Assembly: GCA_951406725.2 (NCBI GenBank)
Contig: OX597830.1
Coordinates: 75,082,001 to 75,146,000, forward strand
Source: Octopus vulgaris
Taxonomy: Eukaryota
DNA: 64,000 bases
Direction of reading: 5' to 3'
Of this stretch, positions 23,016-49,851 are shown in pieces. Positions within the stretch are counted from its first letter, which is position 1, and each line of letters begins with the position of its first letter. Below the pieces are notes generated by a model. It saw only the letters and a program-made list of their open reading frames with translations, did no database searches and was not told where the DNA came from. The translations under genes and the position numbers were made by a program.

Positions 23016-24458
23016 CCGCTGGACGAAATGCTTAGCGGTATTTAACCCGTCGCTACGTTCTGAGTTCAAATTCCGCGGAAGTCGACTTTACCTTTCATCC
23101 TTTCGGGGTCGATAAATTAAGTACCAGTGAAACACTAAGACCAGTGTAACAGAATTATCCTTTCCCTCAATAAGGCTGCCTTTGCGGCAAAATTTTAAAC
23201 CATTGTAATTATTAAAAGAATTATTTTCGCATTCACCCCTCCGTGATAATGATATAGTATGGGTTTAGTATATCTTGGAGTTGTCGCCGACAAACTAAAC
23301 CATTTAAAACTAAGTAATACGTAAAATTAAAAATAATTATAAAATTTCCTCTTCCGTTTGCGTTGTTATTTTAAAATCATTGTTAATGCGCAGATCATAA
23401 TTAGTTTAAGGAAGAATGAAATGAATATGGTATTTAGTCACATTGTCATTTCAAATCAGGCCAAGGTCGAAATTCGCCTCCCTACAGGGGTCTGCAATTT
23501 AAGTATATTTTGCACGCATCTACGTGATAGATTTTTCCTTCCAGAAACATCAGAATCCTTGCTCGATGGGACTGACCCGCGTATAGAGATTGAACCTGAA
23601 TCAAACGCGTTTACAAAGCGAGCTTTTTTATCTACATAACCATGCCTGCGCTTAACCACAAAGGAAAACTGATTTAAACACCCTAAAACCTATAGACCTG
23701 AAAGAACTCTAAAACCCTTGAATTAATGTTTTGAACATGGCAAAATAGTTTCTAAGAATTGCAGTACTGCCAAAGGAGGAAGTAAGTCTTTCCGGACGAA
23801 ATTTTTACGAAAACGTTTTGGAAATGCACATTATTAATTGACTAGAATGAAAAGAAATTCTTTAAACTACAAAAGATATCTGTAATACGATTATAATCTT
23901 CAACATATTTTTATAGTATATGGTAGTTTAAAGACTTCCTGATAAAGAACAGTTGTTTATAGTGATGTTAATTTAAGCGTTGTAGTCAGGTAATTGTAAA
24001 TGTACCAATGAGATTTCATAACGAAAGATGTAAACGTTGAGAATAATGGAAAATATAGTTGATTGAACGAGTATACGTAATTTGAAGTAAATTAAAGTCA
24101 GATAAATTTTGGAATGATCATCAATTGTAATATATTTGTAAATTGTGATTTTCAATGAGATCTTTGCCTTTTGATGTCTTATAGCGATATATGTTTGGTA
24201 GAAAAATTAGAAGTTATTTCGATTTATGGTAGAATAATTAGGGTGACTTTAAAAAATATAGATCTGGATAATGAAACAACTTAAATAAAACTAATTCTAG
24301 AATTATTTCTAGAAAGAGGAATGCTTATCATACATTAGTTCTTAAAATATAATGATTTTTTAAAAATAATTTTTTATACTGATTTAAAGAAAAGTATATC
24401 TATTTAATGAAATATGATATAAAACAATATAGAAAAAGTAAGATTCATTATGACATAT

Positions 24459-24673
24459 CGGTTTCAAATTTTTGCACAAGACCGACAATTTTGGGGAAAG
24501 ATTGAGTCGATTACATCGACCCCAGTGCTCAACTGGTACTTATATTATCGACCCCGGTAAAGGATGAAAGGCGGAGTCGACCGCAGCGGAATTTGAACTC
24601 GAAACGTAAAGACGAGCGAAATACAGCTAAGCATTTTGCCCGGCGCGGTAACGAGTCTGCCAGCTCGTCGCCT
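24459..24673 (-). mobile_element. Full-length SINE-A' fused downstream of the 5S pseudogene
   Basis: Minus strand ggcgacgagctggcagactcgttacc...gagttcaaattccg...gcctttcatcctttaccggggtcgataa...ggtcttgtgcaaaaatttgaaacc. Confidence 0.88.
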
Positions 24674-24690
24674 GAAAAGTGTAGGAGTTA

Positions 24691-24807
24691 CTTATACCAC
24701 CGAGGTTTCCCAAGCGGTTACCCATCTAAGTACTAACTAGGCTCCACATTGCTGAACCTCGATAATCAGACGAGAACCGGTGTATTCAACATGATATGGA
24801 CGTAAGC
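24691..24807 (-). pseudogene. 5S rRNA pseudogene (near full length)
   Basis: Minus strand GCTTACGTCCATATCATGTTGAATACACCGGTTCTCGTCTGATTATCGAGGTTCAGCAA...GTTAGTACTTAGATGGGTAACCGCTTGGGAAAC...TATAAG aligns to metazoan 5S with many transitions; isolated, not in an array. Confidence 0.9.
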
Positions 24808-26289
24808 GATTTATTACGACCTATTGAACTATGAATTAAGACATCATCGTTGCAAAAAAGGATTTTCTAAATGTTATAAAGACCTTTTCTTAAATATAAC
24901 GAACGATGTATGTGATAAAAGTGTGTTAAGATGTATTGGGGAAAATTAAATCACTGTAATATAAGAGTCAATGGATGTATGATGCATCATCATAATTATA
25001 TACATTAATCTGATACTTCTTAATTGTTATTAGAATAGTCTCTTGGACAAATAAACCTAAAAATAAGATTTACCTTCCCTTCAAACGACTTTGTCGGTCA
25101 TACAATGAATGTCAAATATACTAGAACTTGTGTTTACACCAGGAGTTCTAACTACTTTTCATCTATCGACCCTTTTGACTATTATTTTATTCTGGTGGCC
25201 CTCACCATAGCCATTCGATGTTTAAAACTAATTTTATGGATACTTCTTTCAAAATTCCTATTTAGTATTTCACGCGTTCACTTGACCTATGTAAAACATA
25301 AGAGAAAGAAATCGAGCTGTTTCTTTCAATACATACATTTAAAACAATATTTTTTAAGGGGCTCTTAAAATACTATTGTGGATCCCCAATTTGCTATTGT
25401 GTTGCATGGACCCTCAAAAATCTTATATGAACTGTGGTTGAGAAACAGTGGTCTACACAAAACGCTATTATAACCTGGTGCGCTTTAACACACTTTCTGT
25501 GCATAATTTCATTCACATATTTATGCAAACCGTATTTCTATGTATTTCTGCATTTTTATAACAATGCCTAAAAAGTCCCACAATGAAAAAAGTATTTAAA
25601 AACCGTCAAACTTGAAGTCATTTTAGTGTATTCATTTTATTCCACTTTATCTATGCCTCTTGTTATTTAAATTTTATCTTACATTTTTTTCTGAGATTTA
25701 AACCTTCTTTCAAAATCATTGTAAACATTCAAATATTTTTTAAATCGTTATCTTCAATGAACTAGTGGACGATAATGATTTCCCCTTCTCAAAACGTATT
25801 TGTGAAGATAACAATGAGGTTTTGTTACAGAGATAATGGAATAGACATGATTACATAAAGTAAGATTGCAGAGATAAGCTCGATAAAAGTTTAAGTGATT
25901 ATAAATACCAGTATATTCGTAAATAGTATTTTGCGATGAGACGTTTGGTGTTGAAATAATATAGGGATAAAGTTAGTATAAACATCATAAACCATTATGA
26001 AGTATTGTAAAACATTTAGTCGTAAGTTCAAAAAACAGTTAAAAGTGAAGAATACAAATATTATAAATAAAAATAATTTCAGAAACTATTTAAATGGCTA
26101 AGAAAAGAAAGCGCAGTGAATACACTTCTAAATGTTTAACAATCGTTACTAATGTTTTCTTTTATTGGCGACAAGGCCCCAAGACAATAAGGATAACATT
26201 GAAGTACGAAATGGAACACAGAAGCAAGTAGGGGTCTCATAATCAAAGGGGAAAACAACAAAAAAGACATAGAAAATATTAGAATTCAG

Positions 26290-33884: not shown

Positions 33885-34462
33885 TTTCTTCTAAAGGCCA
33901 AAAATCTTAAATTTGTTTGGAAGGGATTAGCCGTTTACACCTATCCAAGTGCTTCACTGGTATTTAATTTATTGACTCCGAAATGATGAAAGGCAAAGTC
34001 AGCCTTGGCGGAATTTGAACTCAGAATGTAAAGACAGACGAAATACCTATTTCTTTTCTACCCACAATGGGCTAAACACAGAAGGGACAAACAAGGACAG
34101 ACAAACGGATTAAGTCGATTATATCGACCCCAGTACGTAACTAGTACTTATTTAATCGACCTCGAAAGGATGAAAGGCAAAGTCGACCTCGGCAGAATTT
34201 TAACTCAAAACGTAGCCGCAGACGAAATACCTATTTCTTTACTACCCACAAGGGGCTAAACACAGAGAGGACAAACAAGGTCAGACAAACGGATTAAATC
34301 GATTATATCGACACCAGTGCGTAACTGGTACTTAATTTATCGACCCCCGAAAGGATGAAAGGCAAAGTCGACCTCGGCGGAATTTGAACTCAGAACGTAG
34401 CTGCAGACGAAATACCGCTACGCATTTCGCCCGCGTGGATATGATTCTGTCAGCTCGCCGCC
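33885..34462 (-). mobile_element. SINE-A tandem composite (two Tx1-tailed units plus an older A' unit)
   Basis: Junctions gacgaaatacc|tatttctt at ~34047 and ~34231; the last unit has a different, older tail. Confidence 0.88.
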
Positions 34463-34844
34463 TTAAAAAATAATAATATTAATGTTTTTTTTTAATTTTG
34501 GCACAAGCCCATCAACTTTGAGGTTGGGCTTTAGTCGATTACATCGATCTCAGTGCTCGACTGGGCCTCACTTTATCGACTCCGAGAGGATGAAAGGCAA
34601 GGTCGATCCCGGAGGAATTTGAACTCAGGATGTATAGGCAGACGAAATGCTGCTGAGCCTGGTGCGATAATGAGTCTGCCAGCACGCCGCTCTAACAATA
34701 ATAATAATCGTAACAATAATTCTATAAAATGAAACGACTATGAGTGCAACAATAGCAACAAGAATACAGAATAACACCAAAGTAAAAGAAATATACAGTA
34801 ACTGCAGCGCACAATACATCACCACCACCACCAACAACACCACC

Positions 34845-41721: not shown

Positions 41722-41919
41722 TTTATCATTACTGCAACAGTAACTATCTTTAGCATATCAGTTGTAGTTGTTGCTGTTACTGTTCTTAGAGTCCTTGCGG
41801 TAGTTATTTAGCCTCCAACCACCACCACCACCACCACAAACAATAACAACAATCCTTAATCAGCCCAGTCCCAGTACACGCGACACATGGTCCAAGACGT
41901 TTCTCACGTAGCAACGCAA

Positions 41920-42308
41920 GGCGGTGAGCTGGCAGAATCATAAGCACGCCGGGCGAAATGCTTAGCGGTATTTCGTCTGTCGTTACGTTGTGAGTTCAAA
42001 TTCCGCCGAGGTCGATAAATTAAGTACCAGTTACGCACTGGGGTTGATGTAATCGACTTAATACCTATGTCTGTCCTTGTTTGTCCCGTCTATGTTTAGC
42101 CCCTTGTGGGTAGTAAAGAATTAGGTAGTTCGTCTGCCGTTACGTTCTGAGTTCAAATTCCGCCGAGGTCGACTTTGCCTTTCATCCTTTCGGGGTCGAT
42201 TAAATAAGTACCAGTTACGCATTGGGGTCGATGTAATCAACTTAATCCCTTTCTCTTTCCTTGTTTGTCCTCTCTACCGTTTAGCCCCCTGTGGGCAATA
42301 AAGAAATA
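41920..42308 (+). mobile_element. SINE-A head-to-tail dimer
   Basis: Unit 1 ends gggtagtaaagaatta, resumes at ggtagttcgtctgcc; unit 2 ends gggcaataaagaaata. Confidence 0.9.
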
Positions 42309-42851
42309 TATAACACCAACACAACAGGACTTATTTTCCCTATATGTCACTTCTCTGTTTTTGACAATAATGCGTGTGTGAGATTAATATGTCTGCAATT
42401 TTCAGTAGGATCGAGTCACTATATAAACGTTGTCCGCAAGAATTTCAAGTATAGGAATCTTAATATTTTATCTGAAAGCCACATAACCAACTTACACATT
42501 ATTGACGAATACGATTTTTTTTTTCTCCTAATCTATATTTTGGAAATAAAATTGTAATTCCATCGACATTTTGTAGTAAACTAGTTTTCCTTTATTCATT
42601 TATTTATTTTTTTGTTTTTGCAAACGTCGCCACAAAAAGTCAAAAATAAAAAAAAAATGATGCTGTAAACAAAAACATAAGGAATATAAAAAACATATTA
42701 AAATATAAATATATATGTGAAAAAAATATAAATAAATATAACGAATATTAAAATAAAAAATAAATATAATATATGTATGCTATGAAATATATATGTATAT
42801 GTGTGTACGTTTGTGTGTGTATGTATATATATCTTATGCTATATTAAATGA

Positions 42852-48291: not shown

Positions 48292-48710
48292 TGCTGATGC
48301 TGTTTTTGTTGTTACTCTGCAGTTGTTGCTGTTGTTGGAATTTATTAATCTATACCCGCGATTCTTGATCAAAACGTGAAGATCCCTGAGAAAATATAGA
48401 GGAATTGGCGAGTGAAAATACTTTGTGGAACTGGAAAGCTCTTTACCATTGCACTTGAGGAAAGGCGGACTGTCAGTTAAAACGCAATCACTTCTGGGAT
48501 TTTTTATCGATTAAGATCATTAGTAGTGAAATTATTAAATGAATTAACTGACTTCTAGCTTTGTCAAAGTGTTTTTACCACAAACTGTGACGTCATCCAT
48601 GAAAACTGCTTCTCTTACTCCTTCTTTCAAGGAATCATTCCCAGCTCATTGTTTACATTTCGGCTTCTAATGGTTTATTTTATCCAGTTTGGTATTTATC
48701 AGAGGGTGAA

Positions 48711-49574
48711 GGCGGCGAGCTGGCAGAATCGTTAGCACGCCGGGCGAAATGCGTAGCCGTATTTCGTCTGCCGTTACGTCCTGAGTTCAAATTCCGCCGA
48801 GGTCGACTTTGCCTTTCATCCTTTCGTGGTTGATAAATTAAGTACCATCTACCCACTGGAGGTCGATATAATCGACTTAATACCTATGTCTGTCCTTGTT
48901 TGTCCTCTCTGTGTTTAGCCCCTTGTGGGCTGAGTTCAAATTCCGCCTGTGTTTAGCCCCTTGTGGGTAGTAAAGAAATAGGTATTTCGTCTGCCGCTGC
49001 GTTCTGAGTTCAAATTCCGCCGAGGTCGACTTTGCCTTTCATCCTTTCGGGGTTGATAAATTAAAGTTCCATCTATGCACTGGGGGTCGATGTAATCGAC
49101 TTAATACCTATGTCTGTCCTTGTTTGTCCTCTCTGTGTTTAGCCCCTTGTGGGCTGAGTTCAAATTCCGCCTGTGTTTAGCCCCTTGTGGGTAGTAAAGA
49201 AATAGGTATTTCGTCTGCCGCTGCGTTCTGAGTTCAAATTCCGCCGAGGTCGACTTAGCCTTTCATCCTTTCGGGGTTGATAAATTAAGTACCATCTACG
49301 CACTGGGGGTCGATGTAATCGACTTAATACCTATGTCTGTCCTTGTTTGTCCTCTCTATGTTTAGCCCCTTGTGGGTAGTAAAGAAATAGGTATTTCGTC
49401 TGCGGCTTCGTTCTGAGTTCAAATTCCGCGGAGGTCGACTTTGCCTTTTATCCTTTCGGGGTTGATAAATTAAGTACCATCTACGCACTGGGGGCCGATG
49501 TAATCGACTTAATACCTATGTCTGTCCTTGTTTGTCCTCTCTGTGTTTAGCCCCTTGTGGGTAGTAAAGAAATA
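48711..49574 (+). mobile_element. SINE-A tandem tetramer
   Basis: One head, then junctions aaagaaata|ggtatttcgtc at 48981, 49205 and 49390; TSD ggtatttat(c/g)agagg at 48691-48705 and 49575-49589. Confidence 0.93.
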
Positions 49575-49851
49575 GGTATTTATGAGAGGCTTATCTGGTG
49601 TTCGAACACGGTTTTCTACATTTAGTCTCCCATTTAGTGACGAATTTAATGAAGCTAATGCAAAAATTAATATTTAATGCTCATGTTATTGCATGAATTG
49701 TCTTATTATAGAAGACTAAATTAATTTTCACTTTTAAGTGTGGTTGTGCTGGATTCCGCATTCGTAAAAATGTTGCACGAAAACAATAGGAAAGAGTTTA
49801 AAAATATTGGATTAAACACTAGACGTGCGCATGTGTGAGATACAAATATGC

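Follow-up and report, generated by a model that had tools for sequence, protein, structure and literature searches.

Several systems in which a small RNA is joined to a SINE or LINE have been described. Doucet et al. 2015 (PMC4476161) reported U6/L2 and U6/Mon-1 chimeras in platypus and U6/AnolisSINE2 and U6/RTE chimeras in Anolis. Chimeras of 5S and of tRNA with LINE-1 are described in human (PMC13174262), and the U6/L1 chimeras of human cells are described as products of the RtcB ligase by Moldovan et al. 2019 (PMC6789731). A SINE-like 5S retropseudogene of Dictyostelium was, by the title of the report, formed when 5S was joined through template jumping by a LINE (Szafranski et al. 2004, cited in PMC6740152). 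In addition, SINE3 and those Deu-SINEs that have a 5S head (for example AmnSINE1) are amplified families in which the junction is uniform (PMC4824008, PMC4494074, PMC7245038), and the test of Kojima separates a true family of this type from summed chimeras (PMC4494074). The kind of chimera reported here is thus already known from U6/L1, U6/Mon-1 and U6/AnolisSINE2.

The octopus locus lies in the window, which is the whole stretch of 64,000 nucleotides of Octopus vulgaris contig OX597830.1 that was analyzed. The original prediction, made from the sequence of the window, described a 5S copy, a trailer ending in TTTT and a complete SINE on the same strand, enclosed together by one target-site duplication. 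All of these parts were found, with small shifts in their limits. In the order in which the minus strand is read, the features are:

24808..24824, no strand assigned: target-site duplication, copy abutting 5S nucleotide 1 (flank comparison and organism E allele at 24817)
24689..24807, minus strand: full-length 5S rRNA retrocopy, 119 nt, decayed (Rfam RF00001, 80.7 bits)
24675..24688, minus strand: 5S precursor 3' trailer ending in TTTT, class TCTCACACTTTT (23 dispersed class copies among 68 pattern matches)
24459..24674, minus strand: full-length tRNA-type SINE ("SINE-A", older-tail subfamily), 216 nt (family comparison)
24442..24458, no strand assigned: target-site duplication, copy abutting the SINE tail (flank comparison and organism E allele at 24446)

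The 5S copy (24807-24689) covers RF00001 model positions 1-120, with 80.7 bits against a cut-off of 38. It had been located correctly, and its real end is 2 nt beyond the predicted end at 24691. The 5S genes of the tandem arrays score 105-114 bits, so the window copy is decayed. The trailer, 24688-24675, is the 14-nt sequence ACTCCTACACTTTT, with TTTT at 24678-24675. The SINE, predicted at 24673-24459, is full length as proposed and its start shifts to 24674; it begins with CAGGCGAC and is judged complete because this start corresponds to that of solo SINE-A copies, which begin with AAGGCGGCGAGC. The two duplication arms are identical at 14 of 17 positions and touch both ends of the insert, which reproduces the coordinates and the score that had been predicted. 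The two parts of the insert are of the same age: the 5S part has 17 differences in 119 positions (14.3%) from a consensus of 11 copies of the same trailer class, and the SINE part has 28 in 214 (13.1%) from a consensus of 23 older-tail subfamily copies.

A functional 5S rRNA gene was considered for the locus and ruled out by the 86% identity, the score of 80.7 against 105-114 bits, the unique flank and the dispersed position. Several of the 17 substitutions in the 5S part lie at positions 50-63 and 89, in the type 1 internal promoter that would form the head of the unit. Four T residues are sufficient for Pol III termination, which is assumed to hold for octopus. The window copy is likely dead, because there are mutations in its promoter region and because Pol III would stop at the T run and not reach the SINE.

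About 25 related pieces of the SINE-A family occur within the 64-kb window. SINE-A often forms tandem multimers in which each new unit resumes from the same internal site (33900-34700, 41900-42310 and 48700-49580), and elsewhere in the genome a 5S chimera (L076) is inserted at about that restart site of another SINE-A head. The window also holds a second chimera, at 56899-56757 on the minus strand. It consists of a tRNA copy (Rfam 32.4 bits, 56894-56810), with CAT as its anticodon and an insert of the size of an intron, then a trailer ending in TTTT and, from 56795, the initial 39 nt of a SINE-B head. With ARAGORN, neither the window nor 30 loci with CR1 tails gave a tRNA, although Rfam reported tRNAs.

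Taken alone, the window duplication is moderately above chance. Its score was reached by 0.9% of 1640 swapped flank pairs from SINE-A chimeras, and in a looser test with a chance level of 3.4%, five flanks among 87 unrelated upstream ones were at least as good a match to the A+T-rich downstream flank of the window insert. The orthologous locus was available in contigs of organism E (DNA runs X11, X12 and X14, from three studies). These contigs carry T at 24446 and T at 24817, so two of the three mismatches between the arms are removed; A at 24814 is one new mismatch, and the third original mismatch is not among the differences listed. The first trailer position holds T, the base of the trailer class. 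One contig spans 24589-25266, which includes the SINE front, the trailer, the 5S and the upstream flank, and a second covers 23900-24483, with only 25 nt of the SINE tail; no single contig spans the whole insert. Both parts are present in organism E and therefore both are older than the split from it. The comparison with a related species that the original prediction had proposed thus returned both the 5S and the SINE and neither part alone, and no empty or half-filled site was found in the organism E contigs.

The same duplication test was applied to other chimeras. Among 41 5S/SINE-A chimeras, a duplication around the pair was found in 18 (swapped-pair null 0.9%) and the other 23 were below threshold; with an intact 5S 5' end the figure was 17 of 27. 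For all partner families together a duplication was found in only 11 of 87 (null 3.4%), in a test that excludes low-complexity duplications by design and so misses insertions into microsatellites. For most SINE-B and LINE-tail partners, the case for one-event insertion is one of position and orientation only. For the window, insertion of the 5S and the SINE in one event is supported, because the two share a duplication, no duplication surrounds the SINE alone, the two parts are of equal age and both are present in the orthologue. This part of the original prediction was upheld.

Accidents of this type number in the hundreds in this genome; 5S, U6 or a pre-tRNA stands in front, and the partners come from at least eight families of SINEs or LINEs. 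A 26-nt pattern taken from the 3' end of 5S had 237 exact matches in the 2.8 Gb genome; the window copy itself is too decayed to match. The first 100 of the 237 matches (C1-C6) were examined, of which three were in the tandem array on C4, three were in the cluster on C5 and 94 were dispersed. A SINE or LINE piece on the same strand started within 30 nt in 87 of the 94 dispersed copies and an antisense piece in none, while control positions gave 127 sense and 135 antisense pieces for 2376 window positions and 90 and 80 for 1316 upstream positions (5-7%). None of 135 array gene ends had a partner. The predicted enrichment of co-oriented SINEs within 30 nt of dispersed 5S copies is therefore large, at 87 of 94 against a background of 5-7%. 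The partner library contained 22 sequences, partly drawn from the chimeras, with self-matches excluded and with solo copies from the window as the SINE-A exemplars. Six of the seven copies missed by the library also show a partner by eye. The partners of the 87 were SINE-B or its tail (40), a CR1-like tail (20), SINE-A (10) and five other families (17). A second 5S pattern shared nine of its 32 matches in the listed range with the first, and from this overlap the total of dispersed 5S copies was estimated by hand at roughly 800, as an order of magnitude only.

The partners include LINEs. At L245:262-4205 (C4 near 61.486 Mb), a 5S with a trailer of the C4-array type is fused to a 3.8 kb LINE, in which the endonuclease and RT domains lie in separate frames. 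At its 3' end this LINE has the 50-nt tail that follows 20 of the 94 dispersed 5S copies. This tail has 1936 exact matches genome-wide. In a sample of 30 such tails (L278-L307), 21 have a common starting site, roughly 50 nt before the 3' end. A Pol III passenger was confirmed in two of the 30 and may be present in up to four: Rfam, applied to 20 of the 30 loci, identified U6 in L278 and a pre-tRNA-Leu with an intron in L285, and by eye L298 and L288 resemble tRNA. In L307 the front of a SINE-B is present. A LINE with the SINE-A tail at its end was found neither in the best 30 of 150 RT loci nor among 61 tail matches in the fetched DNA. The 30 best RT loci are, judging from their motifs, what we take to be RTE-like and CR1-like elements. 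For the insertion signature described for RTE (PMC6007223), 18 duplications were inspected by eye; many start at or near T-A-T, and no clear T stretch was seen 10 nt upstream.

The trailers allow some of the captured RNAs to be traced to their source genes. Two clusters of 5S genes, C4:35.21-35.33 Mb and C5:16.41-16.50 Mb, are of mixed orientation, and each has its own 5S variants, trailers and upstream flanks; the fetched stretches contained 123 gene ends on C4 and 12 on C5. Over 7 nt, the trailers of 27 of the 94 dispersed copies show no difference from those of genes in these clusters. For example, the 5S variant with the trailer TCTTTCT has genes on C5 and 28 dispersed copies among 30 of 38 matches read, and these copies have at least seven partner groups. 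The trailer class of the window, TCTCACACTTTT, had 23 members among 68 pattern matches, all 23 dispersed and none a source gene. The original prediction asked whether the window trailer matches real 5S gene spacers: the trailer does belong to a recurrent class, and source genes were found for other classes and not for this one. No source gene was found for the commonest class either, TCACACA (23 of 94). In seven of 169 chimeras (L013, L074, L118, L120, L068, L119 and L167), an A-rich linker stands in place of a genomic trailer, which represents either oligoadenylated 5S or untemplated bases.

Other Pol III RNAs were captured in the same form. Thirty U6 loci were read of 48 listed; six were gene-like, and the other 24 comprised 22 with a sense partner, one with an antisense partner and one with none. 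Thirty tRNA-Leu loci, of 56 found, comprised 10 chimeras, 19 gene-like loci and one ambiguous locus. All 10 tRNA-Leu chimeras have a trailer up to the T run and none has CCA. Seven keep intron sequence, two are spliced and one is of an intron-less type, and in two (L308 and L311) both leader and trailer agree with those of genes L309 and L333. The captured molecules are precursors and not mature RNAs, because they have genomic trailers, lack CCA, keep introns and match gene leaders.

An end-to-end template jump onto the nascent oligo-U end of Pol III precursors is probably the best reading of these data. The LINE protein would nick the target and prime on the SINE tail. The reverse transcriptase would then run off the SINE 5' end, as the completeness of the SINE indicates, and would take up the U-rich 3' end of a nascent, untrimmed Pol III 5S transcript, as suggested by the trailer ending in TTTT. 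Copying would continue to 5S nucleotide 1, and repair would leave the 17-nt duplication that is observed. In 9 of 10 SINE-A and 31 of 40 SINE-B cases, the partner sequence begins at the 5' end of the element or close to it. R2 proteins make template jumps in vitro, and in cells form 5' junctions to U6 and snap-back junctions; the R2 report leaves jump and ligation undecided for its junctions (PMC11371274). In the octopus genome, a snap-back-like inverted self-copy of at least 4 nt was found at 14 of 64 full-length 5S ends, a count that is inflated by (AT)n targets and compares with 7 of 64 in the neighboring register and 0-1 in five others. No such copy is present at the window 5S. In L007, L268, L014, L017 and others, the inverted copy consists of 5S nucleotides 10 onwards and lies directly before nucleotide 1; it is exact over 4-8 nt and longer with one mismatch, and the partners are mostly other than SINE-A.

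The structure could also have arisen in two events, with a 5S pseudogene inserted first and a SINE later entering its T-rich trailer, by chance or through targeting of Pol III genes. SINE-type repeats are dense enough that, for 5-7% of random positions, a repeat on the same strand has an edge no more than 30 nt away, and the window duplication is imperfect. However, the organism E alleles bring that duplication closer to perfect and the two parts are equally old. A separate duplication around the SINE, which the original prediction named as evidence against a joint insertion, was seen neither at the window nor in any of the 41 5S/SINE-A chimeras, and no partner was found in antisense orientation (0 of 94) or at real genes (0 of 135). 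Two events are thus extremely improbable. The original prediction also allowed that the two RNAs were ligated first, by an RtcB-type reaction as for human U6/L1, and that the joined RNA was then retrotransposed. This reaction has been demonstrated for U6/L1 in human cells (PMC6789731), and U6 has the same partner set in the octopus genome. In addition, the 21 of 30 CR1-like tails that begin, by eye, at one site do so as a cleaved 5'-OH RNA would, but the short CR1 tails are mostly without a passenger, which would also be expected of a stop site of the enzyme. Variable trailer lengths and the extra A-rich bases in some linkers also weigh against ligation. Pol III transcripts such as pre-5S and pre-tRNA would end in a 3'-OH, and a 5'-triphosphate is expected on the full-length SINE RNA that is represented at the window and in most SINE-A and SINE-B chimeras. 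RtcB is described as joining a 3'-OH donor or a 5'-triphosphate acceptor poorly, so both ends would be poor substrates (PMC6789731). Between the two routes that were predicted as alternatives, the jump is favored because the partners are full length, the precursor ends are poor for RtcB, A-rich fillers occur (7 of 169) and snap-back ends are present; ligation is unlikely.

A different possibility is that the window copy belongs to an amplified composite family with a 5S head, of the SINE3 or AmnSINE1 type, that was transcribed and copied as a unit. Four sets of two to three chimeras do have the same linker, and TTTT is missing in 58 of 87 linkers. Also, two 5S/SINE-A chimeras (L002 and L005), which lie at separate sites within separate duplications, have in common an unusual linker lacking TTTT and a set of 5S variants. 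No gene with their trailer was found and the pattern finds only these two copies; this pair is a candidate for a re-copied chimera. Against a composite family, the 169 distinct 5S chimeras in the small loci fetched have 163 different junctions of linker plus partner family, and the window junction did not recur in the 30 loci that were read among the 40 best matches. Each main trailer class pairs with five to eight partner groups, and the TCTTTCT variant occurs both as C5 genes and with its several partner groups. The SINE variants differ among three copies whose linkers are identical. Trailer classes were not grouped in a tree of 35 SINE-A parts (25 changes, against a mean of 24.7 after shuffling), in an analysis of little power since the tree is star-like with 2 of 32 branches supported. 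The window chimera lacks the uniform multi-copy structure of SINE3, and its linker has a terminator, TTTT, between head and tail, where SINE3 has none. It is therefore very unlikely that the window copy is a member of such a family. Because 163 of 169 junctions differ, the 5S chimeras arose independently of one another and do not form an amplified SINE3 family, and Kojima's test (PMC4494074) thus comes out as summed chimeras. The original prediction saw in the window chimera a plausible route to 5S-headed SINE3 families. At most the first step of that route is present; the events are independent, TTTT stands between head and SINE in the window copy, and no daughter copies were found.

The template jump could be extended to the whole set. 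LINE reverse transcriptases of several clades might routinely finish insertions by jumping onto nascent oligo-U Pol III transcripts, whether pre-5S, U6 or a pre-tRNA with its leader, intron and trailer, and units without a terminator, for example L002 and L005, might already have been re-copied, in which case a 5S-headed SINE family would be seen at its birth. This extension is possible and rather doubtful. If it is true, the genome holds thousands of ready-made units consisting of a promoter head plus a LINE tail.

The significance of these results lies in the genome-wide set; at the window locus there is only one probably dead copy, and its kind is known. The origin of the Pol III head of SINEs is usually inferred from finished families, and a template jump is the step long proposed for the birth of a SINE. 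This genome holds several hundred dated intermediates, with trailers traceable to source genes. Thus, it can now be counted whether jump or ligation made the junction (the jump is favored), which form of the RNA was captured (nascent, not mature) and how often a family was founded (rarely or never so far). For annotation, most dispersed 5S and U6 matches and many tRNA matches are retrocopies and not genes. In the main texts of the literature searched, no report was found in which full-length 5S copies in sense orientation, with their trailers, are joined to full-length SINEs, or of such a scale. The part of the literature covered gave no report of such chimeras in cephalopods, or of precursor trailers in them, and none of precursor substrates, full-length SINE partners and this scale in an invertebrate.

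The comparison with the known systems can now be drawn. The analogy with mammalian U6/L1 chimeras that had been proposed for the window locus holds for each mark that could be checked: a small RNA on the 5' side is joined directly to a retroposon on the 3' side of the same strand, one duplication surrounds both parts and the junctions differ between copies. The RtcB-made U6/L1 chimeras have the same product layout and differ in that the ligase needs a 2',3'-cyclic phosphate and a 5'-OH, which are not expected on nascent 5S and full-length SINE RNA (PMC6789731). The Dictyostelium case is, again by its title, a single retropseudogene (PMC6740152). The human 5S/LINE-1 and tRNA/LINE-1 chimeras are, like those of octopus, single insertions with a duplication, independent and usually not propagated (PMC13174262). 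However, the 27 human cases are described as typically antisense and truncated, whereas the octopus 5S is sense in 87 of 87 copies with a detected partner and has a complete 3' end and a trailer, in a sample that was selected on the 3' end. The SINE3 and Deu-SINE families have uniform junctions; in contrast, the octopus chimeras have heterogeneous junctions and no master copy was found. A close parallel is with the chimeras of PMC4476161, in which a small RNA likewise stands before the end of a same-strand SINE or LINE in one insertion. As described there, genomes with stringent LINEs retrocopy small RNAs almost only as chimeras, and some partners have a short duplication or none, so that the platypus L2 parallels the octopus families other than SINE-A. 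The cases in that account are of U6 only and from vertebrates (40 in platypus and 16 in lizard), and the platypus U6 is mostly 5'-truncated and placed on a short L2 end. In octopus, 5S and pre-tRNAs are captured too, with unprocessed trailers and often at full length, on full-length SINEs and in hundreds of copies.
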